Below, one piece after another: positions 16,217 to 29,541 of a DNA stretch of 64,000 bases. The stretch is from contig CAWIEK010000050.1 in the NCBI GenBank assembly GCA_963835065.1, positions 32,001-96,000 on the forward strand. The letters are read 5' to 3'. Each line of letters starts with the position of its first letter. The first letter of the stretch is position 1. The translations under genes were made by a program, and so were the position numbers. The notes below the pieces were generated by a model that made no database searches, had not been told where the DNA came from, and was given only the letters and a program-made list of their open reading frames with translations. This stretch comes from an uncultured Chthonomonadaceae bacterium. Lineage in GTDB: Bacteria; Armatimonadota; Chthonomonadetes; Chthonomonadales; Chthonomonadaceae.

Positions 16217-17365
16217 ATGGGGCAGTTTCTGAAGGCGGCGGAGATTGGGGCGCAGGGGGCTATGACGCTGCCGGGGCGTTTCTACACGTCGCCGGAACTC
16301 TTTCAACAGGAGCAGGAAAGCATCTTTTTCCGGCAGTGGATTTGTGTGGGGCGGGAAGAGCGCATCCCACAGCCGGGCGACTACTTCGTTCGCACAATCG
16401 GGACGGAAAGCGTGATTATCGTTCGGGGGCGTGACGGAACTGTTCGCGCCTTCCACAACGTTTGCCGGCATCGGGGCGCGCAATTGTGCGAGGCTGGCGA
16501 AGGCCATTTCAAGAACGCCATTCGCTGCCCGTACCATGCGTGGGCGTACGGATTGGATGGCCGACTCCTTGCCGCGCCCTCAATGGAGGAAGTGATGGGC
16601 TTTGCGGCGGATGATTACCCGCTGCATCCCGTGTCCCTTGCCCGTTGGGAAGGGTTTCTCTTCATTTCGCTTGCCGCCGAACCGGAGCCGTTTGCCGTTG
16701 CGTATGCGCCCCTGCTGGACAAGTTTCGCCCGTACAACCTGCCCCTGTTGCGGATGGCGCGGCGAATTGATTACGATGTACGCGCCAACTGGAAATTGAT
16801 GTTTGAAAACTATTCGGAGTGCTTTCACTGCGCGCCCGTGCATCCCGCGCTGGTGAAACTCTCGCCTGCCGACAGCGGGGCCAACGATCTGGTGTCGGGC
16901 GCGTTTTTAGGCGGCTACATGGAAGTCAAGCCCGACAGTGGCAGCATGACCTTGAGCGGCAATTCTTGCAGCCTGCCCGTAGGCGACTTATGCGCCGAAG
17001 ACCATCATCGCGTCTACTACTATTCGCTGTTTCCAAACATGCTGCTCAGTCTGCATCCCGACTATGTGATGGTGCATACCCTCTGGCCGGAAGCGCCCGA
17101 CCGCACCCGTATTGAGTGCGAGTGGCTGTTCCACCCGGATGCCGCCACGCACCCCGGCTTCCATCCCGATGATGGCGTAGAATTCTGGGATCAGACGAAC
17201 CGCGAAGACTGGCACGTCTGCGAACTCAGTCAACTTGGCATCTCCTCCCGCGCCTACACGCCCGGCCCCTACTCCCCGCGCGAAAGCATTTCCGCCGCCT
17301 TCGACCGCGAGTACCTGCGCGTCCTCGGCTTGCCAACAAACCCTTGCAGCGGGACACAAGGCTAA
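16217..17365 (+). CDS. Rieske non-haem iron oxygenase alpha subunit (choline/glycine betaine oxygenase-like)
   Basis: NVCRHRG...CPYHAW, NWK...ENYSECFHC..VHP, EDWHVCE. Confidence 0.92.
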   Translation: MGQFLKAAEIGAQGAMTLPGRFYTSPELFQQEQESIFFRQWICVGREERIPQPGDYFVRTIGTESVIIVRGRDGTVRAFHNVCRHRGAQLCEAGEGHFKNAIRCPYHAWAYGLDGRLLAAPSMEEVMGFAADDYPLHPVSLARWEGFLFISLAAEPEPFAVAYAPLLDKFRPYNLPLLRMARRIDYDVRANWKLMFENYSECFHCAPVHPALVKLSPADSGANDLVSGAFLGGYMEVKPDSGSMTLSGNSCSLPVGDLCAEDHHRVYYYSLFPNMLLSLHPDYVMVHTLWPEAPDRTRIECEWLFHPDAATHPGFHPDDGVEFWDQTNREDWHVCELSQLGISSRAYTPGPYSPRESISAAFDREYLRVLGLPTNPCSGTQG

Positions 17366-17739
17366 GGAGGCGGGATGCGGCGCAGTGTGAACGTTGCTCC
17401 ATCCAAGACAGGCAACACCAATTCGTAACCGTACATCAGCGACATCCCCACCAGCGAATCGGCTTCCAGTTCGTCTATGCGGATAGTCATCGGCTGACCA
17501 TCCCATAAAACGACGCCCTTGTAGATATTGAACGTGGTTTCACTGCCGTCCGCGAGAATAGCTCGCCCAAACCTGTGCCAGCGTAAGCCGAGTATGGCAA
17601 TCACATCCGGCGGCAGCGTCAAAGTACCATTGTAGCCGGTATCTATAAGCGAGTTGTACGTATGTTCCTGACCATTCGCATCATGTAAGGTGAGGCTCAA
17701 AATAGCCTCGCGCCGTGCCGTAACAACCCCTGTCATCAT
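17362..17739 (-). CDS. Clan AA aspartic protease (AF_0612-like)
   Basis: IDTGYNGTL, LADG, LVGMSL. Confidence 0.85.
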   Translation of the reverse strand: MMTGVVTARREAILSLTLHDANGQEHTYNSLIDTGYNGTLTLPPDVIAILGLRWHRFGRAILADGSETTFNIYKGVVLWDGQPMTIRIDELEADSLVGMSLMYGYELVLPVLDGATFTLRRIPPP

Positions 17740-18011
17740 GCGCTTTGCTCGCTCCGTCCTGCGCCAAACCGACGCACATAGCGTGAGCCAACACGCAGCA
17801 CCATGATCTGCGCGTCAGGCAATCGCGCTTGCAGGCGGTCTGCGGCAATGTCTTCATCAGCATCTATTTCCCACGCGCCGGTATCCAAGTCAACGGCGAC
17901 AATCTCATCGTTGTGCGCCGGTTCCACCTGAGAGCGAATATCGCGGTCGTATATCTCCTCACCGCGCCGCCTAGCTTCCTCTTTACTGTAGCGTGGCTGA
18001 TGTACTATCAT
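17736..18011 (-). CDS. Small DUF5678-like protein paired with the aspartic protease
   Basis: RRGEEIY...IVAVDLDTG...RVG. Overlaps the protease start. Confidence 0.65.
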   Translation of the reverse strand: MIVHQPRYSKEEARRRGEEIYDRDIRSQVEPAHNDEIVAVDLDTGAWEIDADEDIAADRLQARLPDAQIMVLRVGSRYVRRFGAGRSEQSA

Positions 18012-18023
18012 AAATATTCTCCT

Positions 18024-19313
18024 CTATGCCAATTGAGGTTTGCCATATATCTCCATCCGACCGCGCAAAGGACTGTCGTGGTCGAACGAGATGATGACGG
18101 AAAGACTGTGTTTGTCCAATGAGTGATCTATGCTATACATATCCATAAGTTCCGGCCAGCGTTCGGCTAGAAATAGTCCCGCCGCAAACGTACCCTGACC
18201 ATCATGTCCTCCGCACACAAAGTACGGTTTGCCCTTACCGTCGAGCGTCCGCACAATGAGAGCTTGGTCGTACTTGACACCCCTGTCTGGTATCGGCTTA
18301 GCAAAAAAGTCAATGCCGTTGACTTGGAAATTAGCCATCTTGGTTTCTTCGTCAGGCCATACGTCAAAGAAGCCCTCCGGGCACAATCCACGTGCTTTGT
18401 AGGCGGCACCGTTATGTAATCCTATGGCGATGATCCGCTGATTATCGCGTATATGCTCGTAACCATCCCGCTCAACCTGCATATGGATGCCCAGGTTGGC
18501 GCACAATCCGGCGATAGCACTCGCCGCCCGCAAGTCCCAAAATACGGCAGCTTGGTCGGGCCGTTCCTTCTTATCGGGCGTTGATAAGGGAGTAGGATGA
18601 TCATCTGTGTCGTGTATCCGAATGGTAAACGCAGGTGCGTATGTATCTTGAAACACGGCCACAATAGATGGAGCATCATTAAGACCGAAGAACTGGAGGA
18701 ACTTACTACGCATAATCTCCTTACCGGAAACTTCCGGGCTAATCATAGTTACTTCTGCCTTGTAATTTTCGTTGACCTGAGTAATAGTGTCAATTGATGG
18801 ACTTGCGTATATAGTTCGTTCGTACTTTCGACTGTTCAAGACGTAGGAGTGGTTTTTATACGGGGTGAAAAGGCTCTGAAGATGTTCATCCAGTTGTCCG
18901 TAAACTTCTTCTGTAACAGTTACTCGGTTTTCAAGACCGATAACTTTTTCCGATTTTAAGAAGTCATTTACGGCCTTTCCGTACAGATTTTTTAGATCCG
19001 GGTCCCATATAGCCTCTCCTTTATGGCAGGAAACGCGAATATGCAACGGCACTTTCAAAGTATTAAGTGTCTTCAGGGCATTGAAAAGACGCATAGATGC
19101 TTGGATATGAAGCGCGCCCGTAACCATATAGTCAAGTACCTCGTCTTGATCTATCAGAAAGAGATAGGCTCCCCCATCACCATCGAAGTCCAGTTCTTGG
19201 GCACCGTGCGAAGCAAGAATTTCACCAACCTGTCGTTGGAAGTTCTGCCGAGTTACGCTTATGTGCCGGTCAGCTCCTGGCAATAAGCTATGGCCTGCAA
19301 TATCAACTTGCAA
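18024..19313 (-). CDS. Class III nucleotide cyclase-like N-terminal domain plus uncharacterised C-terminal domain
   Basis: VDIAGHS, DGDGG, IRVSCHKG, GKAVN. More AT-rich than its neighbours. Start uncertain. Confidence 0.6.
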   Translation of the reverse strand: MQVDIAGHSLLPGADRHISVTRQNFQRQVGEILASHGAQELDFDGDGGAYLFLIDQDEVLDYMVTGALHIQASMRLFNALKTLNTLKVPLHIRVSCHKGEAIWDPDLKNLYGKAVNDFLKSEKVIGLENRVTVTEEVYGQLDEHLQSLFTPYKNHSYVLNSRKYERTIYASPSIDTITQVNENYKAEVTMISPEVSGKEIMRSKFLQFFGLNDAPSIVAVFQDTYAPAFTIRIHDTDDHPTPLSTPDKKERPDQAAVFWDLRAASAIAGLCANLGIHMQVERDGYEHIRDNQRIIAIGLHNGAAYKARGLCPEGFFDVWPDEETKMANFQVNGIDFFAKPIPDRGVKYDQALIVRTLDGKGKPYFVCGGHDGQGTFAAGLFLAERWPELMDMYSIDHSLDKHSLSVIISFDHDSPLRGRMEIYGKPQLA

Positions 19314-19506: not shown

Positions 19507-19842
19507 TTACGCGACAGCAAAATCGGTGTACTGGCGCAAGTCTGCCGGATGGAACGCGAGTACGATGTTTTGTCTCGGAATGCCTTCCCGCATCAGCATA
19601 TCTGCAAGTCGCAGGTTGGTTCCGTCGCGCTGAATCCAAACCTTGTCTTCCAACACGTCTACATGCAGGTACATATCATCCACGCGGCGCTTGCCTTCCC
19701 ATCCTACCTGCCCTAATTGATAATGCCCGGTCGTTTCATCGCAAATAAGTTCGGTTCGCAGATCAGCTTCCGACGGCATCATTTCTCCAACCTCCTCAAA
19801 AACACGTCGGACAATCCTTTTAAATTCGCAGATTCGATCCAT
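19507..19842 (-). CDS. XisI-family protein
   Basis: DETTGHYQL...GW, LHVDV..DKVWIQRDGT, GIPRQNIVLAFHP, YTDFAVA. Confidence 0.9.
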   Translation of the reverse strand: MDRICEFKRIVRRVFEEVGEMMPSEADLRTELICDETTGHYQLGQVGWEGKRRVDDMYLHVDVLEDKVWIQRDGTNLRLADMLMREGIPRQNIVLAFHPADLRQYTDFAVA

Positions 19843-19883
19843 TCCAATGCCTCTTTCTCCTGCGGGTCCTAATAGAGAAGATG

Positions 19884-20216
19884 TCACGATGCAGGTTGTG
19901 CGGCAATTTTGACAATCTGCCCCGGCGCAAGAGAAGGCAACACAGCCAATACCTGCGGCATTAGCGGAAGCAGAGTTTCGATGGTATTGTCTTGTGCCGT
20001 CAACACGATTAAGGCAAAGGAGCGCCCGCTCATATTCTGCTGATAGCGCATATTGCCATCAATGGTGAGAAACGCATCGAACTTGCCTGCTATCAGCGGC
20101 AACAGTTCGCCATTCTGAATACCGGCCCAGCCCATTTCCGGCACAGTCTTCACATCATGGCCGGACAGACCACCTTTGAGTTTGCGCGGCAGGCACTCGT
20201 CAAGCAACAGGTTCAT
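19884..20216 (-). CDS. DUF5615 PIN-like toxin (VapC45-like)
   Basis: LLLDECLP, GWAGIQNGELL, FLTIDGNMRYQQN. Confidence 0.85.
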   Translation of the reverse strand: MNLLLDECLPRKLKGGLSGHDVKTVPEMGWAGIQNGELLPLIAGKFDAFLTIDGNMRYQQNMSGRSFALIVLTAQDNTIETLLPLMPQVLAVLPSLAPGQIVKIAAQPAS

Positions 20217-20460
20217 ACACCGCCTCGTTGTCAGGTTCCTGCAACCGTTGCTGAACAGCGTCTAAAACTTGCTGCGCGTGTCCGCGCGTGACCGTTGGGA
20301 AATCATCCAGAAAATCGTCCAGAGGATGATTCGCTTTCAAGTAGTCAAACAACGTCTTGACGGGAACGCGCGTACCTGTAAAGACGGCAATACCGCCCAG
20401 GATATTCTCGTTGCAGGTAATTATGTTTTCTGTCATTATCATTTTACTCCCATTCACCAA
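20200..20460 (-). CDS. DUF433 antitoxin (VapB45-like)
   Basis: ILGGIAVFTGTRVPV..LFDYL...FLDDFPTV. Confidence 0.9.
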   Translation of the reverse strand: MVNGSKMIMTENIITCNENILGGIAVFTGTRVPVKTLFDYLKANHPLDDFLDDFPTVTRGHAQQVLDAVQQRLQEPDNEAVYEPVA

Positions 20461-20481: not shown

Positions 20482-21912
20482 CTACTTGTTCAGCCAGGCA
20501 TGACGCTGGCGTATCTTTTGCGCCTGTTCGGGGTTGACCATGTGGAGGAAGGACAGGTAGCCACCGGCGTACAGCAGGGCGTTCTTGCCGATACGCTCCG
20601 ACATGGTTTGCAGCCCTTCGGTTTCGCAGTGGTGCAAAAAGGCGCGGAACTTGCGCAGGTCGCGGCGGGACAGGCGCGGCGTTTCGTTCACCACCACGCC
20701 CGTCACCACCTGCCGATGCTGCGGGCGCATCACGCGGGTTTTGCCCTCATTGATAACATAGCCTTCTTCCGCAATGATGTGCCGCAAGCGGGTGAACAAC
20801 ATGCCGGTCGGGGCTTCCTTATCCGCATGGGAAAAGACAAGATCGTCGGCGTAGCGGGTATACGTGAAGCCGTAGCGTTTGGCGATCCCGGTTAGGCGCG
20901 AATCCAGACGGCGGCACAGGATGTTGGTAATCGCGGGGGATGTGCAGGCTCCCTGCGGCAATTGGCGCTCACCAATCGCAACGTGCCGTTTTTGCCCGTC
21001 CAATGTCAGGGCGACGCGGGGCGATTCGGTGCAAAGCAGGGCCAGAATGGACGCTACGCCCTCGTTGTACCCCAAATGCGTAAACAAGCCCTTCACGCGC
21101 CGAAACTGAATGGACGGAAAAAAGTCTTTCAAGTCCACGCGCACTACCAATTGCTTGCCCGTATGCCGCTGCGCGTTGTGCAGAATGGAACGTTTGGGAC
21201 GGAACGCCATCGCCGCGTCGTGGATGTTGACGCGGTTCAGGATGCTCGTCAGTACCCACGATTGCGCGGTTCGCAGTTGCTTTTTGGGCGCGGAAATCGC
21301 CCGCATCCCGCCGCTCCGCTTGGGAATGGAAAAATGCGCGTAGTGGTCAATCACGGTTGCGCCCCGGTGGTAGGTGAGCCACGCCAGTGTCTTTGTTTCT
21401 ATGCCCATCGCGTTCGCCAGTTCTTCCGCCGAACTCAGCGCAGGCAGGCTTGCGCCCTCTACTTTCGCCGCATCCCCGCCCTCATACCGCAGTCCCGCCG
21501 ACACGCCATGCCCGAGATACGGCAGCGTTCTCGCCCGCCATTCCTTCACCTGCTCCGAACGCGCGGCCTGTTCCGCTTCCTTTTGCTGCTTTTTGGCGAC
21601 CCGCGCCGCCCGAACCCGCTCGATCCGCTTTTTGCGGATGTCCTGTATCAGCGCGGGAATGTTACGGCCTAAATTGATCTCTTTATCCAACTGCTGCAAT
21701 TCCGCCCGCGCGGCCTGCAAGCCCGGATACAATTCTTTCAGTTTGGCTTCCGCATCCGCAATCTGCTGCGTCACTCCGGCCTGCGGCGGCCAGAATCCCA
21801 GCCGCTCCATCTCTTCTTTGATGAACGCTTCCTTGCCGATTTCGCGCATCCGGTCGCGCCAATTGGCCTGCGTCACGGGCTGGTTCGGGGTTACGGTGGT
21901 GTCGGTGGTCAT
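20482..21912 (-). CDS. Retron-type reverse transcriptase with long N-terminal extension (myxobacterial Mx162-like / type XIII-like)
   Basis: IPKRSGGMR, region X NAQRH, DLKDFFPSI, LPQGACTSP, YADD, region Y VTG. No maturase or endonuclease domain. Confidence 0.92.
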   Translation of the reverse strand: MTTDTTVTPNQPVTQANWRDRMREIGKEAFIKEEMERLGFWPPQAGVTQQIADAEAKLKELYPGLQAARAELQQLDKEINLGRNIPALIQDIRKKRIERVRAARVAKKQQKEAEQAARSEQVKEWRARTLPYLGHGVSAGLRYEGGDAAKVEGASLPALSSAEELANAMGIETKTLAWLTYHRGATVIDHYAHFSIPKRSGGMRAISAPKKQLRTAQSWVLTSILNRVNIHDAAMAFRPKRSILHNAQRHTGKQLVVRVDLKDFFPSIQFRRVKGLFTHLGYNEGVASILALLCTESPRVALTLDGQKRHVAIGERQLPQGACTSPAITNILCRRLDSRLTGIAKRYGFTYTRYADDLVFSHADKEAPTGMLFTRLRHIIAEEGYVINEGKTRVMRPQHRQVVTGVVVNETPRLSRRDLRKFRAFLHHCETEGLQTMSERIGKNALLYAGGYLSFLHMVNPEQAQKIRQRHAWLNK

Positions 21913-21924
21913 GGGAAATCCTTG

Positions 21925-22044
21925 AGTAGTCAGTAGTCAGTAGTCAGTAGTCAGTAGCTGTCCTACTCATTACCTTTGCCAACGCACAAGGTTTTGAGTA
22001 AGCAGGGATTTCTACTGACTACTGACTACTGACTACTGACTACT
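21925..22044. repeat. MITE-like palindrome: (AGTAGTC)n - 54 nt core - (GACTACT)n, copy 1
   Basis: Inverted heptamer arrays at 21925-21957 and 22012-22044. Confidence 0.85.
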
Positions 22045-24022
22045 TCTTCATCATCTCTTCAAACTGCCCTTCCGTTAAAACCGCCACGCCCAACTGCTGC
22101 GCTTTGGCGAGTTTGGAGCCGGCTTTGTCGCCGGCGACGAGATAGGTGGTGTTTTTGCTCACGCTGCCGGACGCGGTTCCGCCGTACTGCCGGACAAGGT
22201 CTTCGGCCTGTTCGCGGGTGAACAGGGTTAAGGCTCCGGTGAACACGAAGGTTTTGCCTGCGAACAGCGTGGGGTCAATGCCGCTGCCGGGTTTGGCGTC
22301 CTTGCTTGCCTGCTGCAAAGCGACTTGTTCGGACGCGAGGGCGGCAGCCGCGAGAATGTGGGCGCACGGCCCCTTGCGCAGTTTTTCGCGCTTGAAGAAC
22401 GAACACGAGCATTGCGCATACTGAACGCGCCCGTCCAGGTCAACGTCCAAAATCACGTCCTGCGTTTTGTTGCCCCGCGCATCGTCGCGTACTTCGGCCT
22501 GAACGCGCACCCGGTCTTCCCCGCCATTGGCGGGAGCGCCGAACGTCAGTTTGCTGTCGTCTACCGCATCCGCCCACTTCACGCCTTTCGCCGTTACAAT
22601 GCGCCTCGCCTGCGCCATGCGCTTGTCCTGATCGGTTTCCGGCAGTTTGATGGGAACCGGCAACAATGCCCGCCAGCGATACTGCCCCGTGATATGGTCA
22701 TACATCGCCTGCCCCTGCGCGCAGCACTGCTGCAAGGCGGAAGTTGCGGCATCGCGGGGTATGGACAGTTCCGAAGCAAGGGTTTCCGGCGTCAGGTGCA
22801 GTTTGTCGGACAGGGTTTTTAGGGCTTTTTCTACCACATCGGGCGGAGCCGTATTGGTGGACGCCAGCAAATCGAAACGCGCCGCCTGCGCCCAATCGTT
22901 TTTTGTCCAGCCGGACAAGCCCAGATCGAAACGCTGGTTTTTCTGAAATACGGTCCAGTAGGAAGGCAGGCCGCCGCCGAGCAAGCGCACCTGTACCCAA
23001 TCGGCGTGAGGCAGCAGCGACTCCATCACCAGCAAGCGCCGCCGTCCCCAAATGCGGATTTCGCCCTCATACTCGCCATTATAAACGTGTTCGTGTTCCT
23101 GAACCACGTCGTTCCACGGCTCCACGACAATGGACGGCTTTTGTCCCGGCTTCACGACAAACCGCAGCGAACGCGGCCCGACTTTTTCCCGCTTTCGGCG
23201 CAGAATGGCAAGCACATCGGCAACCGTCGCCGCGCTGAGTTTCAAATCCACCGTGCCGAACGCGGCTGCCGACTGCACCTGCAAAAAGCCGCGTACCCAC
23301 GTCGGCGGCAGGTCTATTTTCTTTTCTACCGACTCGCCCGCGCTGGTCGCAACGGTCACGCCCTCCGCGCCGATCTGCAAAAAGGCGGGGCGATAACTGC
23401 GAATACGCCGGATTTCATCGGCAAGCGGGCGGCTGTAATCAATGTTGGTCGTGCCGTACACGGCCTGCCCGAAAATGTCCAGACTTTCGGTGGGAACCGT
23501 GACGCGCCCGTAACTCAACTCGTCCTGCGAAAACACTTCAAAAATCAGGCAGTCGGGATGAACGCTGACAACCGGATCAAGCACCCACCACGCTTCGCGG
23601 TCATGCTCCAGCAGCCAGCCGAAATAACGGCGCTTGTGCTGATAGTACACGCCCCCGGACGCCAGATTTTCCAGATCCCGCACTTCTTTGTAACGCTTGT
23701 TGACGTCGGCCAGCGCTTCTTTACGCCGCTCCATCAGGGCGGGCAATGTGGCGGCGCGTTCCGTCAGTTCCGCGCCCAACTCTTCCAGATACCGCTGCTG
23801 TACCCACTCCTGATACGCGGTATGGTCTTTGGGCGCGTTGCGCAAGTCCGACGTGACGACCTCGTACAGGGCCAGCATCAGGCGCGCATACGCCAGACTG
23901 TCCTTAACCATCGCGTCCAGATGCACGGGCGGACGCGACTGCTCGGCGGACACATCCAGGTGCATCCCGTCCGAAGCCATATTCCCGCTGCTCGGGCGCG
24001 CATAATGTTGTGTTATTTCCAT
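22040..24022 (-). CDS. SWIM zinc-finger protein with C-terminal BRCT domain (retron accessory)
   Basis: CSC-x11-CAH SWIM motif; [23 protein letters not shown]...[22 protein letters not shown] (LigA-type BRCT); N-terminal [36 protein letters not shown]. Confidence 0.88.
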
Positions 24023-24033
24023 GTTGAACTCCA

Positions 24034-24153
24034 AGTAGTCAGTAGTCAGTAGTCAGTAGTCAGTAGAAATGCCGCACTGCTCAAAGTTTTGCGTAATTGC
24101 AGAAGTAATAAGTAGGACCGCTACTGACTACTGACTACTGACTACTGGCTACT
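24034..24153. repeat. MITE-like palindrome, copy 2 (core inverted relative to copy 1)
   Basis: (AGTAGTC)n at 24034-24066 and the complementary array at 24121-24153. The core is homologous to the reverse complement of the copy 1 core. Confidence 0.85.
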
Positions 24154-27100
24154 TCGACCCCTTCAATCTCCACCCCCGCCACCGCCAGCCTTGCCAGTTG
24201 GCCTAATGCCCATTCCGCGTCGCGGGACGAGCGGCCGCGCGCCAGTTCCAGCAGGAGGGGAATGTCCTGCGAGGTTTCCGCGTCCAGGCGGCGCTTGACC
24301 AGTTCTTTGGCTTTGCGGCCTTGATTGCGGGCGCGCAGTACCTGACGGTCGAAGGCGGGAGCCTGCGCGAATCGTTCCTCGGTTTGTGAGCAGGCGGGAC
24401 GCGAGAAACGCTTCCATTTGCGGGTCGGTGTTTTCCGACAGGCGGTTGAATATCGCCTCGTGGGAAACGGCTTCCCAACGCGCTTCCAGGTATTGCCGGC
24501 CATAAGCGCGAACCGGGGCTTTGGGGCTGTCGCACAGGGCGGTAATGAACTCAATGGCGTGTTCGTCGTTAGTCGGCACGGCCTCAAAGAACGTTTTGCC
24601 CATAGCCACAGCGGGCGGCAGTTCGGACTCCAGCAGGCGCAGGGCGAACGGCATCCTCATGCCCACTTGCGCAACGCGCTCCAGCCCCCAGGCGCGAATG
24701 TCGGGCAGCATATGCGTGGCGATTTGCAGCAGGGCGGGCGAGTCGGCGGTAAACAGCGCGTCATGCGCCTGTACCCATCGGCCTAAAATCGGGCCGTAAA
24801 CCGGGTTGGCGGTGTTCAGAAATTCGGGATCGTCAAGCGTCAGGAAGGTGGCGCTGACGATTTCATCTTCGAGCAGGCGGGAAGATGAGAACCGGGTTGT
24901 TTGCCGTACCTACCTGCTTCCATGCCAGTTGCCAGAACGCGGCGATTTGGCCCGCCTGTTCCAGGCCGTTGACAATGGTTTGCCGCAGTTCGGGCCACTG
25001 CGCGTCCGTTGCCGCTCCCACCAGTCCAAGTATGGAGGCGACGGGCAGAACCCGCACAATGTTTTGCAGTGCGGATTGCGGCAATAGCCTGACCAGAAAC
25101 GGGCGCGTTTCCAGCAAGCCTTGCAGCCGGGTTCCATCCAGCGACAGGCGATTAAACAGGGCAATGGCAGCCGGGGAACCGGTTGCCGAGCGCAGGGCGT
25201 CCGTTTCCGTTGTGGCGGCAAGCAGTTCGTCCCAGACAGGAATTAAGTTGCTGTCGGGCGTCATACTGGCGGCAATCAAGTCCCATCCGGTGCGCCGTAT
25301 CCATTCGGAAGGGGCATTGACCAGTTCCTTCATTTTGGCTGTTGGAATCGGTTTGGAGCGGATACTTTCCGTCAGGGCGCCCAGGGCTTGCGTCCGCAAA
25401 TCATCCGGCAAGTTTTCAAGATTTTGCAGCCACACGTCCAGTTGCGCAATTGACGCCTGCCGCAGCGTGTCCAATCCCCATTGCAGCAATTCCGGCCTGC
25501 GCGTGGCATATAACTGCACGGCAAGCGCGGGAGATACCTGCTTACTCAGCACGGTGGGGAACTGCGCGACAAGGTATGCGAAAGCAATCCCCTGTCGGCG
25601 CGTCAGTTTGCCGTCTTGAGCGTTGTCGCTTGCCAGTTTGTACAGGCGGTACGCGAAAGGATTGATCCATTGGCTGCTCAGATTGGCTTGCCGCGCAATA
25701 TAATCTTTTATGGTCTGGCGCGTTCGGCCACTGCCCTTGAAAAAAACTTCCGCCGCTATATCTGCGGCTACGGTTTCCCCGTTGGCGAGTTTGGAAGCGA
25801 GGGCGCGGGATGCAAGCGTTGCCAGCAGGGGCGAGGGCGACTGCAAAAAGAACAACAGTCCGACATCCGGCACGTTGGGCAAAGGCCGCTTCATGCCGCG
25901 CAGCATTTTGCAGGCCGCTTCATGGGTTTGCCAGGGCAGTTCGGGCGTGACAACGAGGCTTTCCACCTGCTGCGGATAGCGATCCCAAAATTCGGGATGG
26001 CGCTCTTCGCGGGTGCGCAGGCTCAGATGCCTGCCGCGCAGCAGGTACGCGCCCCGTCCGTGCGATGCCTGTTCGTAGCGGCGGGAGTTGCCGTACAGAA
26101 TGTCCATCGAAACCCATTGTACGCGGGTGTCGAGTTCCTGCCGATCCTTGCCCGTTGTCAGCAACATTTGCGTTGCCTGCTGAACATACTGCGCGGGGTC
26201 TTGTTCGGCCAGGCTGCGCAGGGCGCGGCGGACGCGGCGTTTCATGTAGCCGAAGGTTTTGTTGGACGGCAACGCGCCGAGCAGATAGGGACGCTCCGGC
26301 TGGCGAACATCCAGGATTTGCAGGGACGAGGCGTGATGAGGCCGGGTTTGCAGGTCAAAAAAGACATGGTTCGGGTCATCGGCGGAAGCGGCTATCGGCC
26401 CGACAATGCCGCCGATAAACGCGCCCATAAGCCGGGGCTGTGTGGGAACGGCAATGTCAACAACTTTCAGGCCGCTTTGCTTGACATTGTTATAGCCCGG
26501 CCCTTCAAAACTGACGAAGGCGTGATTTTTGCCAAGCGCAAGCGATTTGGCGCTTTCAAATTCCAGCATGGTGGCGGGTGTGAGGGGGATTCCATGTGCA
26601 TCCAGCCGATACACGTTCAGCCCCAATTTTTCCGCAGCCGTCTCATAATAGCTGGCGCGTCCCACAGTGACAAACAGGTGATTATCCTGAATTCTAATGT
26701 CGGTGGCTCCCGGCACATCCAGTGAGTTCGCCTGACGCGGCTGAAAGGGGTTGGACAGATCGTAAGTGACGATTTTCTGGCGGTTGTTGTAGCGTTCGCC
26801 GGACAGAACGTAAATCTTTTGCCCCAAAACGGCAAAATCGATAGGCGCGTCCACTTTGGTCTTGCTGACCGTTACAACAGCAGTGAGGATTGGAAACGTT
26901 CAGAATTGTCAGAAAACACTCGCGGTAGTAGTTGCTGATGACTGCCACACTCATGCCCAGGCGGGCAATACGAACCGGATATTTCAACTCACTGGAAGCA
27001 ATGCTTTGAGGATGGGCCGGATTGGACACGTCCACGATATGCAGCATTCCTGTCTGCCGATTGTAATACCCGCTTTCAAGGACGTAGGCCGTTTTGCCAT

Positions 27101-27599
27101 TCTCCACTATCAAATCTTGTGGATTAGGAATGTTGAGGTAGCCCAAAGGCCGGGGCTGCGCAGGATCGGAAATGTCCAGAATATGCAGGCCGGGGCGATT
27201 GCCTCTGGTCAGCAGATACGCGAGGCTGCCGGATACGAACACCCGCGCAGTGTTGTTGATACCCGCCGACGTGAGGGGCGTCGGCAGCATTTCCGGCGTT
27301 TCGGGCAAGGGCTGAACGTCCAGCCGACACGCAAGCGGCTGCAAAATATCCCAATCCTGCAACGTTTCCGCCGCCTTGTACAAGCGCTTCACCTGCGCCC
27401 AATAGCCATACGCAAACGGCGCGGTCTGCGCCACCTGTTTCCATTCGGCGCGGTTTGCCTCCGTAATGGCAATCGGCGCGGGTGGGGCGCTTGTAGCCGT
27501 TGGCATATCAGCGGCAGTCGGAGCGGCAGCGCCCCCACCGAACAAACGTTTGAACAGGGACGCAATCGCCCCCAATCCTGATGGTTCATCCTGAGCCAT
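24135..27599 (-). CDS. Large (~1150 aa) retron accessory protein: LVIVD-like beta repeats plus ARM/HEAT-like helical region; at least 3 frameshifts (~26870, ~24885, ~24380)
   Basis: Joined from ORFs 26694-27719, 24863-26854, 24163-24711 and 24135-24587. Repeats LHILDISDPAQP, LHIVDVSNPAHP, YDLSNPFQP, LKVVDIAVPTQP, LQILDVRQPERP. Also YWAQVKRLYK, TFGYMKRRVRRALR and ALCDSPKAPVRAYG. Confidence 0.75.
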
Positions 27600-27643
27600 A
27601 ATGGTTTCTTTCAGGTTTAACAAAGAACCCCTGCTTGAGCGGT

Positions 27644-27690
27644 TCCCCTTCTCCCAGGCTTTTTTGGGAGAAGGGGTCAGGGGTTGAGGG
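27644..27690. repeat. REP-like palindrome
   Basis: CCCCTTCTCCCA...TGGGAGAAGGGG-TCAGGGGTTGAGGGC. A related element lies at 63893-63938. Confidence 0.6.
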
Positions 27691-27704
27691 CACGTTGGTA
27701 CAAC

Positions 27705-27926
27705 CGCGAACACAGCCACTAATCACGTAAAGAACCGGCGGCAATCACTGTAGGCCGGGGATTAAATGCAAATTTTCATGTCTCGCATGAACCTGTTACC
27801 ACAGCGTCAAAAACATGAAATTTGTATTTTATCCCCGGCTGAGTAGAATTGCTGCCCGGTGATGGATGGCAGGCGAACCAACAGCCATGGCGAAGCGCCA
27901 CAGGCTCAATGCTGGCAATGTTCGCG
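27705..27926 (-). ncRNA. Putative retron msr-msd ncRNA, unit 1 (gene-proximal)
   Basis: Terminal IR CGCGAACACAGCCA (27705-27718) / TGGCAATGTTCGCG (27913-27926). Candidate branching G at 27912 (-). Long hairpin 27734-27860. Confidence 0.85.
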
Positions 27927-27970
27927 CAAACGACGGCAATACCAAACCACTGCAAACAAGCGAGATGAAA

Positions 27971-28196
27971 GCGGAAAGTCTCTGCCACTGATCTTGTAAG
28001 CAACCGGCGGCGATCACTGTAGGCGTCCGGGGACCCTGCCTTTACTCGCTAGCGTGATTTTATATCTCTCAGCGCCGAATCGAGTAAAGGCAGGGTCCCC
28101 CGGACGCTGAGTAGAATCGCTGTCCGGTGACGGATGACGGGCAATACAGCAGCCACGGCGAAACGCCGCAGACGGAATGCTGACAGAAAACTCCGC
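27971..28196 (-). ncRNA. Putative retron msr-msd ncRNA, unit 2
   Basis: Terminal IR GCGGAAAGTCTCTGCCA (27971-27987) / TGACAGAAAACTCCGC (28181-28196). Candidate branching G at 28180 (-). 26-bp stem 28023-28048 / 28081-28107. Confidence 0.85.
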
Positions 28197-28209
28197 GGAG
28201 AATTCAGGA

Positions 28210-28281
28210 CAAAAGGCAAAAGGAGAAAGGAAAAAGTAACATGGCCGATCACTTTCTCCTTTTTCCTTTCTCCTTTCTCCT
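28210..28281. repeat. Purine/pyrimidine heptamer palindrome between ncRNA units 2 and 3
   Basis: AAAAGGC-AAAAGGA-GAAAGGA-AAAAG ... CTTTCTC-CTTTTTC-CTTTCTC-CTTTCTC. Confidence 0.7.
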
Positions 28282-28293
28282 GTAACTGCATGT

Positions 28294-28513
28294 GCCGAAA
28301 AAGCTACTAATCCTGTTGGGAACCGGCGGCGATCACTGTAGGCGGCAGGGTGCTAGTTGTCGCCGGGACGAGCATGGGCGCGTCTTCTCAGCGTCGAAGT
28401 TGCGGCGACAACTAGCACCCTGCCGCTGAGTAGAATCGCTGTCCGGTGTTGGATGGCAGGCGATACAGCAGCCATGGCGAAACGCCACAGACGGAATGCT
28501 AACCTGTTTCGGC
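28294..28513 (-). ncRNA. Putative retron msr-msd ncRNA, unit 3 (5'-most)
   Basis: Terminal IR GCCGAAAAAGCTA (28294-28306) / TAACCTGTTTCGGC (28500-28513). Candidate branching G at 28499 (-). Perfect 24-bp stem 28342-28365 / 28403-28426. Confidence 0.85.
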
Positions 28514-28710
28514 TCTGGTGTTCAGTTACAGGGCTTTCACTGTCGGACGATGCGCCGAACCGGAAAGCCGTTCTTGGAAATACGTTGGTTGGTCTGGAAA
28601 ATTCCTGCGAACGCGCTTTTTGTTGCTTGAAAACGGCGTCACCCTCACGGCTGCGCATTGATTGGGCGCAGAAGGTTTTCCTGCCGACTTGTAGCGCTGG
28701 GGCAAAGGAA

Positions 28711-29541
28711 TTACGGCTGCGCGCCGTGTTGGATTAGAAAGGGGATGAGCCGCGTATTGTTCTGTTCGCGGGCAATCGTCAGGGCGGTTTTGTGGTACTT
28801 GTTGCGTTGGTTGATGTCGGCGTGGTACTGAAGCAGCAGAGCGGCAATGTCTACCACGTCGCCATCCGGGGAGGTGGCAAGGTTCATCAGGGGCGTGTAG
28901 CCATAGTTGTCCCAGACGTTGGGATTGGCGCGGGCTTGCAGCAGCAATCGCGTTGCGGCAAGTTGATGCCCGTAAATGGCGTGGTGCAGGGGCGTCGCGC
29001 CCGAAGTGTCTCGAATGTTGATGTGCGGATGGCGCAGCAGCAAAGCCGCGATTATTTTCGGGTCGCCGCGTTTCGCCGCCAGCATCAGCAGAGTGGTATG
29101 CTGATCCGATTCAGGATCGTCCTCCACATCCACGTCGGCCCCATGCCGCAGCAGCGCCTCGAAGACCGGCCAGCACTCATATGATGCCGCCCTCGCAATA
29201 ACGGGAGGTCCACCATGCCTGTGATACATGCTGAACGTCTCCTGTAAGGTGGAGCGAAAATACCAGGGACGGAATATGTCCCGGCTGAACCAGCGGCCCA
29301 AAACACCGGTTGAGGAACTTTGCTCATAAGCATAGAGGCGTACATTCGGGTCCGCGCCCTGCTGAAGCAAACTTTCCACCTCGACGGCGTGTTCTGATTC
29401 TGCCGCTTTCAGCAGGGCGATGTTGAGCGTTTTGCGATGCGCGGCGTGGCAGACCCAAAGGGCAAACACGCCGCAAACCAGCAGCCCGCTCACGAAATAA
29501 CGCCGGAGCAGGCGAAGGAGACGGAGAAAGCGATTTTTCAC
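28711..29541 (-). CDS. Membrane-anchored ankyrin repeat protein
   Basis: GATPLHHA, GYTPLM, LLQQGADPN, N-terminal TM segment. Confidence 0.9.
   Translation of the reverse strand: MKNRFLRLLRLLRRYFVSGLLVCGVFALWVCHAAHRKTLNIALLKAAESEHAVEVESLLQQGADPNVRLYAYEQSSSTGVLGRWFSRDIFRPWYFRSTLQETFSMYHRHGGPPVIARAASYECWPVFEALLRHGADVDVEDDPESDQHTTLLMLAAKRGDPKIIAALLLRHPHINIRDTSGATPLHHAIYGHQLAATRLLLQARANPNVWDNYGYTPLMNLATSPDGDVVDIAALLLQYHADINQRNKYHKTALTIAREQNNTRLIPFLIQHGAQP

Follow-up and report, generated by a model that had tools for sequence, protein, structure and literature searches.

The window, a stretch of 64,000 nucleotides from an uncultured Chthonomonadaceae bacterium, carries at positions 20482..28513 a block which, judged by its sequence, is a type XIII (Mx162-family) retron with three complete msr-msd units and a partner protein, whose N-terminal ~340 residues are predicted by modeling to form a two-domain PCNA fold. 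Relative to the literature searched, which was mostly open-access, the type XIII array of three templates and the clamp-fold partner appear to be new, the family itself being known. The locus is chromosomal and bacterial, and its four components, i.e. the ncRNA units, an LVIVD/ARM gene, a SWIM-BRCT gene and the reverse transcriptase (RT) gene, are all located on the minus strand (Table 1), as the original prediction had stated together with the multiplication of the ncRNA. Indeed, the end of the nearest unit and the RT start are 5,794 nt apart with both accessory genes in between, in line with the ~5.8 kb given there, and the order ncRNA–ARM–SWIM–RT is repeated across Armatimonadota type XIII loci and thereby kept in other genomes. 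The BRCT domain and the β-propeller, which had been put forward as new domain content, are present, but both are common in Armatimonadota type XIII systems and not peculiar to this locus.

Table 1. Features of the type XIII retron locus (positions refer to the window).
Feature	Position	Strand	Details and basis
msr-msd unit 1	28294..28513	(-)	a2 arm, priming G 28499 (TAGC), msr hairpin, 24-bp msd stem 28426..28342 with conserved loop, a1 from 28306
msr-msd unit 2	27971..28196	(-)	priming G 28180 (CAGC), 26-bp stem 28107..28023, a1 from 27987
msr-msd unit 3	27705..27926	(-)	priming G 27912 (CAGC), AT-rich 27-bp stem 27839..27754, a1 from 27718
ARM/HEAT-solenoid gene	27599→24135	(-)	about 1,150 aa in relatives; PADLOC WGR_XIII and HEAT-ARM_XIII
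LVIVD β-propeller in N-terminal part of ARM protein	26280..27310	(-)	approximate limits, mapped from G002 orthologue; Pfam LVIVD
SWIM-BRCT protein, 660 aa	24022→22040	(-)	predicted PCNA-fold domain with coiled-coil insert, winged-helix-like region, SWIM finger, BRCT; SWIM_XIII E 7e-169, Pfam, AF2
Predicted sliding-clamp (PCNA) fold, residues 33–373	22904..23926	(-)	VIA, Foldseek on AF2 model
BRCT of NAD-ligase/RFC1 type	22052..22273	(-)	sequence and structural matches
Retron RT, type XIII, with N-terminal extension	21912→20482	(-)	476 aa; HMM match, motifs

The proposed type XIII affiliation is borne out by the profile matches. The RT matched the RT_XIII model with 540.7 bits over residues 8–475, whereas the next model reached 313.9 bits, and SWIM_XIII and WGR/HEAT-ARM_XIII were matched as well; the assignment to RT clade 10 is by HMM match. 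The retron hallmarks that had been proposed were all found, i.e. NAQRH (region X, NAXXH) at residue 246, YADD at 354 and VTG (region Y) at 403. Since Pfam RVT_1 begins at residue 196 and the alignment to the solved Ec86 RT at residue 151, the N-terminal extension, previously estimated at ~180 residues, comprises about 150–190 residues. The best PDB matches were the Ec86 and Ec67 RTs. An assignment of the RT to group II intron, DGR or UG enzymes was not supported, as the group II intron model TIGR04416 scored 67 bits and the DRT models Drt2/3a/4 scored 20–36 bits, in comparison to 224–231 bits for retron models.

Mx162 was the first msDNA to be found (1984) and is a member of type XIII. The literature searched (mostly open-access) contained no function for Mx162, no anti-phage experiment on type XIII, no natural type XIII array and no link between a retron and a clamp. 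The locus is closest to the type XIII retrons of RT clade 10 (Retron-Mxa1/Mx162, Mxa2/Mx65, Sau1/Sa163 and Nex2/Ne144), as described in the sections of PMC7736814 (Mestre et al. 2020) covered here. In common with these, the window locus has an RT with an extended N-terminus, an upstream HEAT/ARM (WGR-like) gene, msr-msd units with a priming G and a cluster-114 protein that combines acidic residues in DEDE spacing with a winged helix and SWIM. It differs from the systems in these sections by three template genes, by the distance of 5.8 kb between ncRNAs and RT, by the C-terminal BRCT and by the β-propeller insert. Moreover, the N-terminal domain of the cluster-114 protein, for which the same sections suggest a transposase origin, has a predicted PCNA fold in our model.

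The three msr-msd units share a common scaffold, while each has its own a1/a2 arms, its own priming G and a different msd stem of 24–27 bp, and they were the only strong matches to the ncRNA unit in the 8-Mb genome. As in other retrons, the a1/a2 inverted repeat ends at the priming G. Of 44 aligned units, 42 contain this G, the remaining two being one truncated and one misaligned unit, and it resides in the context TAGC or CAGC, both of which are retron priming G contexts (PMC6868368). Pairing amounts to 87–98% in the a1/a2 arms, the msr hairpin and the two helices of the scaffold, and is accompanied by compensatory changes. The units are not a product of chance, because the predicted cDNAs fold at z-scores of −9.8, −8.9 and −6.4 and none of 200 shuffles was as stable for any unit. 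Unit 1 is the positional orthologue of unit 1 in the genomes G002 and G001 (a2 arm 100% and 94% identical, respectively). Unit 3 shares its a2 arm (100%) and msd 3' box (97%) with unit 3 of G002, while the stems differ at 11 of 22 positions. By its sequence, unit 2 looks like a mosaic with an msr 95% identical to unit 2 of G001 and an msd 3' box 94% identical to unit 2 of G002. Rfam returned sub-threshold microRNA matches only, and a scan of positions 27550–28800 for promoters found no sigma-70 site. As there are three different template-RNA genes, one RT therefore likely makes three small hairpin DNAs.

In the SWIM-BRCT protein, Pfam located SWIM at residues 536–560 and BRCT at residues 584–657, and a winged-helix-like region with the succession helix-helix-helix-strand-strand is present at residues 394–450 of the AF2 model. 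The clamp fold, on which the original prediction was silent, derives from one AF2 model (34 sequences, pLDDT 73, pTM 0.58). Comparison of this domain with 3aix_A yielded a VIA Z-score of 18.5 with an rmsd of 2.9 Å over 232 of the 245 residues of 3aix_A, and a Foldseek search gave an E-value of 1.6e-8. The likeness to PCNA, 9-1-1 and β sliding clamps extends from the predicted two-domain fold to basic helices and an acidic remainder: four clamp-helix segments, picked by analogy with clamps and without coordinates, are net basic in 125/125 homologues (median +6), while for the domain outside these segments the median is −7. Unlike sliding clamps, to which it is ~10% identical, the domain contains an 85-aa coiled-coil insert and is fused to winged helix, SWIM and BRCT. 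A profile search of the PDB yielded no clamp among 23 matches at E ≤ 10, and an Atlas search with the clamp region returned unnamed or SWIM clusters only. Residues D149, D157, E162, D195 and E233 are invariant in 34 sequences. The best sequence matches of the BRCT were LigA (E 8e-21) and RFC1 (E 5e-14), and the best structural match was the RFC p140 BRCT–dsDNA model 2k7f (Z 11.8). One homologue (L021) carries an inserted WGR domain and has no BRCT.

The ARM protein is predicted to be a propeller-plus-solenoid scaffold. In the AF2 model of its G002 orthologue (pLDDT 87.5), propeller matches reached Z-scores of 27–29 and filled the fold-search list, so that the solenoid was barely probed. The propeller insert comprises 15, about 130 or about 330 residues, always at one and the same position, and in 7 of 8 pairs it is less conserved than any other segment; by sequence comparison the β-propeller is swappable and fast-evolving.

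The msd stems are held to pairing and length rather than to sequence. In the stem cores of 63 units, 1468 of 1483 pairs (99%, counted per sequence) are Watson–Crick. The mismatches include 12 A·C, corresponding to G·T in the cDNA, versus 1 G·U, which is the reverse of the a1/a2 arms with 35 G·U versus 8 A·C. This bias would favour pairing in the DNA copy and provides indirect support for production of branched msDNA. The stems have a mean pairwise identity of 0.30, in comparison to 0.68–0.70 in the scaffold. Their median length is 29 bp (n = 46 units), and a single clade without BRCT has 6 units with stems of 44–47 bp. The stems are TA-rich and TC-poor (z +7.7 for TA, +9.9 for GTA/TAC and −6.0 for GA/TC in 38 non-redundant arms), with a bias in the same direction in the long-stem clade. 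No such bias was found in the a2 arms or in 128 other hairpins of the genome; mutational bias could be its source. The GTA/TAC motif occurs in 12 of 19 array units versus 29 of 35 single units (P 0.18) and thus lends no support to a specialisation of array copies. Three further properties were considered for the stems. As CRISPR-like spacers they gave chance-level matches only, and 50,697 phage records, in which the host's phages are probably poorly sampled, yielded best E-values of 0.9, none and 3. Cruciforms from self-complementary stem arms were rejected, as the mean z was −0.66 with 4 of 30 at p < 0.05 and there was no enrichment of palindromes. Likewise rejected was a pairing between the loop CGCTGAG and the stem-base CTCAGCG, which is perfect in unit 1 of the window but does not covary in distant units. 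A pattern scan of viral contigs revealed no ncRNA unit in viral loci among the matches listed, and a viral-contig search with the SWIM protein gave one match of 23 residues.

Taken together, we tentatively propose that the locus is a type XIII retron whose msDNA rods are held by the clamp-fold SWIM-BRCT protein, likely as a bait-and-guard anti-phage system over a toxic activity, a reading that we consider plausible but do not yet hold to be probable. In this model, the RT would prime at the G of each unit, and the single RT likely copies the three tandem template RNAs into three different branched msDNAs, each predicted to be a ~25-bp double-stranded rod gripped by the predicted PCNA-fold protein. 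The clamp-fold domain would bind the rod chiefly through recognition of its shape, with a loose preference for TA/GTA, while BRCT, winged helix and SWIM would bind the junction or the ends. The ARM protein would scaffold the complex, and its fast-evolving propeller may help in sensing. Disturbance of the msDNA by phage proteins with cutting, melting or binding activity on duplex DNA, or by those directed against clamps, would release the toxic activity, which may be clamp-mimic replication poisoning or a catalytic activity of the conserved acidic cluster D149/D157/E162/D167/E168/D195/E233. Additional units would increase the amount of msDNA and diversify the sequences of the baits.

Alternatively, the locus might be a domesticated DNA-maintenance or replication-stress module with no phage role, in which the clamp-fold BRCT/WGR protein would sit on msDNA rods until DNA damage causes its release or titration; we consider this rather unlikely. 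Such a housekeeping role fits, because the system is common within some families (18/27, 15/23 and 12/29 genomes) and type XIII shows vertical inheritance and correlation with the host 16S in the covered sections of PMC7736814. It would also agree with a BRCT nearest to LigA and RFC1 and with the retron site being common to the genus, since an amidase gene lies upstream of the locus in both the window genome and G001. However, the distribution of the system within the family of the window is patchy (4 of 24), it was not found in many families searched, and toxin-antitoxin-type and XisI genes are located directly downstream of the locus. Conflict systems are usually swappable and fast-evolving, and so is the propeller.

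Type XIII arrays are present in 8 of 43 loci, while 35 contain a single unit, and at least 4 changes on the RT tree show that arrays expanded independently. Since most loci have a single unit and single-unit stems are as variable as array stems, arrays are not required. The array could thus represent a tandem duplication for dose or drift with a near-neutral stem, whose fast compensated change comes from arm-to-arm copying, the retron otherwise acting as bait-guard or in DNA maintenance; this explanation appears doubtful to us. Stem change tracks divergence at 4-fold sites of the same operon (5/22 vs 0.18, 7/22 vs 0.34 and 17/44 vs 0.45), i.e. stems diverge at about the rate of synonymous sites and yet keep their pairing. 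Within arrays the units are mostly most alike each other or close kin in their scaffold, and stems lack phage matches beyond chance, which also agrees with dose or drift. On the other hand, the composition bias argues that stems are not free, and arrays persist across species with positional orthologues.

The ARM gene of the window is split by three single-base (+1) insertions near 26886, 24887 and 24390, while its orthologues are intact (1163 aa in G002, 1148 aa in G001 and 1139 aa in G020). That the gene is truly frameshifted in a decaying retron, inactive in the window genome, is very improbable: three insertions outside homopolymers in one gene do exceed the about 0.44 expected from the rate across the genome (19 simple events counted over 50,206 aa; P(≥3) about 0.01), but the assembly is prone to frameshifts (a change of frame in 18 of 116 orthologues that are intact in G002), the extra bases are absent from close strains (at each of the three sites in sequencing runs X1 and X3 and at a single site in X2 and X4), the homologous ARM frame is free of stops between the breaks, and RT and SWIM are intact and 90–92% identical to G002. 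The insertions are probably assembly errors. A CTCA context is common to the three sites, but it was not supported as a systematic cause of frameshifts, as it occurs at 1 of 15 other coding frameshifts versus a background of 5%.

Extending the bait-and-guard proposal to the family, type XIII retrons may be clamp-on-rod immune sensors, in which a PCNA-like ring would be locked onto duplex baits that the RT makes at a fixed length. The bait sequence would turn over by arm-to-arm copying and would be biased to host-avoided words (TA, TAG, CTAG), and arrays would form an expandable, recombining bait library, which widens the range of detected phage DNA-binding, clamp-binding or nuclease proteins. 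We put this forward with considerable doubt. A comparable arrangement exists in UG27, where an RT and two accessory proteins are combined with an array of ncRNAs with conserved scaffold and variable hairpin; each hairpin is copied into cDNA, and target complementarity was not found (bioRxiv 10.64898/2026.09.22.753630). The window locus shares this composition, but UG27 systems have an RT of the class 2 Unknown Group, occur mostly in phages and have units of about 150 nt, whereas the former lies on a chromosome and belongs to the clade-10 retrons, with a classical a1/a2 and a priming G. Engineered retron arrays likewise combine one RT with several msr-msd units, but are reported as a synthetic editing tool (bioRxiv 10.1101/2023.07.17.549397), in contrast to the natural array described here. 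A natural retron with three templates breaks the picture of one RT with one ncRNA and parallels the UG27 arrays of 2026. The locus may also provide a natural scaffold for multiplexed ssDNA production, in which the stem would be freely changeable. With a predicted clamp-fold partner and msDNA that appears to be held to length and pairing, but not to sequence, the question of type XIII function becomes directly testable, and the three-unit array would by itself allow one to ask whether specificity depends on the msDNA sequence.

The original prediction had placed a type XIII-like retron operon in the window, and its four components were indeed found at the described positions, all in the same orientation, with an RT containing the NAQRH, YADD and VTG motifs. 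The RT, whose clade was assigned by HMM, scored 541 bits with the PADLOC model RT_XIII as compared to 314 bits with the next model, upholding the family assignment. It is not a group II intron or DRT enzyme, as NCBIfam retron models reached 224–231 bits versus 20–67 bits for group II intron and DRT models; its closest solved structures are the Ec86 and Ec67 RTs. The partner gene matched PADLOC SWIM_XIII (E 7e-169) and the third gene WGR/HEAT-ARM_XIII. In the portion of Mestre et al. 2020 (PMC7736814) used here, type XIII comprises a clade-10 RT, a DEDE/winged-helix/SWIM protein and a HEAT/ARM protein, while excerpts of Simon et al. 2019 (PMC6868368) give an extended N-terminus and a TAGC/CAGC priming context. 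The window locus therefore belongs to the type XIII family.

Positions of the retron components and neighboring features (window coordinates unless a locus is named)
Feature	Position	Strand	Remark
Priming G, ncRNA unit 1	28499	-	faces a G
Priming G, ncRNA unit 2	28180	-	faces a G
Priming G, ncRNA unit 3	27912	-	faces a G
LVIVD/ARM gene	27599→24135	-	three +1 insertions
(AGTAGTC)n element	24034-24146		inverted; between ARM and SWIM genes
SWIM-BRCT gene	24022→22040	-	660 aa
(AGTAGTC)n element	21925-22044		inverted; between SWIM and RT genes
RT gene	21912→20482	-	
DUF433 + DUF5615/PIN pair, XisI	19507-20460	-	directly downstream of RT; pair toxin-antitoxin-like
429-aa gene	18024-19313	-	in low-GC stretch (47–49%)
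Clan AA aspartic protease-like gene	17362-18011		with small partner
SWIM gene, Chloroflexia homologue	L021:8061-10022		WGR domain inserted, BRCT absent
Sequence before second ncRNA unit, G001	L007:6900-7650		resembles promoter-like region of first unit

The N-terminus of the 429-aa gene product resembles a class III nucleotidyl cyclase (Atlas score 0.84, a lead only), and searches of Pfam, PADLOC and NCBIfam gave no match; it is possibly a signalling or defence gene.

Of 401 genomes from the phylum, 55 contain an RT match with E ≤ 1e-90; they are clustered in a few families, named carriers belonging to Armatimonadota and Abditibacteria. The order ncRNA–ARM–SWIM–RT proved to be conserved in every locus on a sufficiently long contig. 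Locus L031 has RT and SWIM genes, and searches for ARM and ncRNA matched neither there nor in the distant forms L273 and L274. A second type XIII subtype was seen in Abditibacteria-like genomes (L041, L045, L047, L049, L050, L051), in which BRCT is absent, the ARM protein is distinct (~1,270 aa), stems measure 44–47 bp and the ncRNA lies farther upstream. Both subtypes co-occur in three genomes (G118, G129, G163).

Multiplication of the ncRNA was likewise borne out, each of the three units having its own a1/a2 arms and priming G. Every unit contains a conserved msr hairpin and loop motif, and conserved boxes lie on either side of the msd stem. Across 37 units, pairing in four scaffold helices amounts to 87–98% and is accompanied by compensatory changes; these units include kin and hence are non-independent. 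In a first survey, 33 of 41 distinct loci carried a full unit (6 had none, 2 a truncated one), seven of them two or three; ten of 20 further loci had a full unit, one of these two. Arrays thus occur in 8/43 loci with a full unit; G043 also has two units in tandem, known from ncRNA matches alone. Three single-unit loci have less than 500 bp of upstream sequence, so additional units could be missed there. All 9 true units among the 64 metagenome pattern matches listed were single. Mapped on an RT tree of 35 rows, possession of several units requires at least four changes. For units 1 and 3, the relative G002 carries orthologues at corresponding positions, and unit 2 looks like a mosaic by sequence; in relative G001, the promoter-like resemblance suggests that the units may be transcribed separately. 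That the array is neutral or serves dosage is an alternative which we consider unlikely.

Stem arms show a mean identity of 30% versus 68–70% for the scaffold. Stem length is constrained: the median is 29 bp (46 units), and one clade of six members that lacks BRCT has stems of 44–47 bp. Stem cores (63 units) are almost entirely Watson–Crick, at 1468 of 1483 pairs; the small remainder comprises 12 A·C, one G·U and two others, whereas in a1/a2 G·U (35) outnumbers A·C (8). As A·C in RNA corresponds to G·T in cDNA, pairing is of the DNA type in the stem and of the RNA type in a1/a2. Base composition can create biases of this kind; the counts compared here are of opposed pair types, and their numbers are low. 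Stems diverge about as much as 4-fold sites of the same operon (0.05–0.55 versus 0.18–0.48, 14 pairs), and changes are nearly always compensated. This turnover is faster than two-step compensation should permit, which suggests that one arm may be copied onto the other.

The stem sequence is non-random. Among 38 non-redundant arms, TA is enriched (z 7.7), as is GTA/TAC (z 9.9; 30 arms versus 11.8 expected), while GA/TC is under-represented (z −6.0). In the genome itself, TA (0.64) and CTAG (0.06) are avoided. The long-stem clade trends in the same direction, and the bias is absent from a2 arms and from 128 other genome hairpins compared. The window stems gave no match to known phages. The (AGTAGTC)n elements look like REP-type repeats, because 147 such arrays occur genome-wide; the GTAG/TAGT words they share with those enriched in stems are probably coincidental.

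The SWIM protein was modeled with AF2 (pLDDT 73, pTM 0.58). Residues 33–373 in the N-terminal region, predicted to adopt a PCNA fold, match PCNA (Z 18.5, rmsd 2.9 Å, 232/245 residues), ranks 1–24 of the fold search are all clamps and two Foldseek libraries likewise return clamps; a sequence search detected no homology to clamps. Segments equivalent to the DNA-facing helices of clamps are net basic in 125/125 homologues. The DEDE residues, tied to transposases in the consulted part of Mestre et al. (PMC7736814), are invariant in 34 sequences and fall within the first clamp domain of the model. The BRCT domain is of the LigA/RFC1 type and present in nearly all of the closest 120 homologues, distant representatives mostly ending near residue 560. 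The whole locus could also be a housekeeping module for DNA stress, which we consider unlikely.

The ARM gene is uninterrupted in G001, G002 and G020 (1,139–1,163 aa). The extra bases of the window copy are absent from close strains, at all three sites in sequencing runs X1 and X3 and at one in X2 and X4, and of 116 orthologues intact in G002, 18 show a change of frame in the assembly of the window's genome. Assembly error is therefore likelier than true mutation, although three frameshifts within a single gene are more than the average rate predicts (P about 0.01, calculated here); a decaying locus is very improbable. Split genes elsewhere in this assembly call for the same caution. The G002 orthologue was modeled (pLDDT 87.5) as a β-propeller combined with short helices and a helical solenoid of 700 residues. 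The propeller occupies one fixed insertion site, where 25 homologues carry 15, about 130 or about 330 aa; in 7 of 8 pairs no other segment is less conserved (e.g. 38% versus 63–70%). The ARM protein of L021 lacks this insert.

A literature search found neither a natural type XIII array nor a type XIII clamp fold in print; the supplements of PMC7736814 may bear on domain content. 'Array', 'BRCT' and 'LVIVD' do not occur in the accessible text of the 2026 SPIRE survey (PMC13712802), nor 'XIII' in a term search of the retron census (PMC10849725, partial text). The nearest published analogue, going by part of its preprint, is UG27 (bioRxiv 10.64898/2026.09.22.753630).

As the most likely mechanism, we tentatively propose that one RT would make three msDNAs from the array, whose rods the clamp-fold protein would hold on an ARM scaffold. 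A guard logic is known from other retrons. It is this logic, introduced in the abstract of PMC12548924, that is borrowed here by analogy rather than from a type XIII experiment: phage proteins would disturb the complex and thereby release toxicity.
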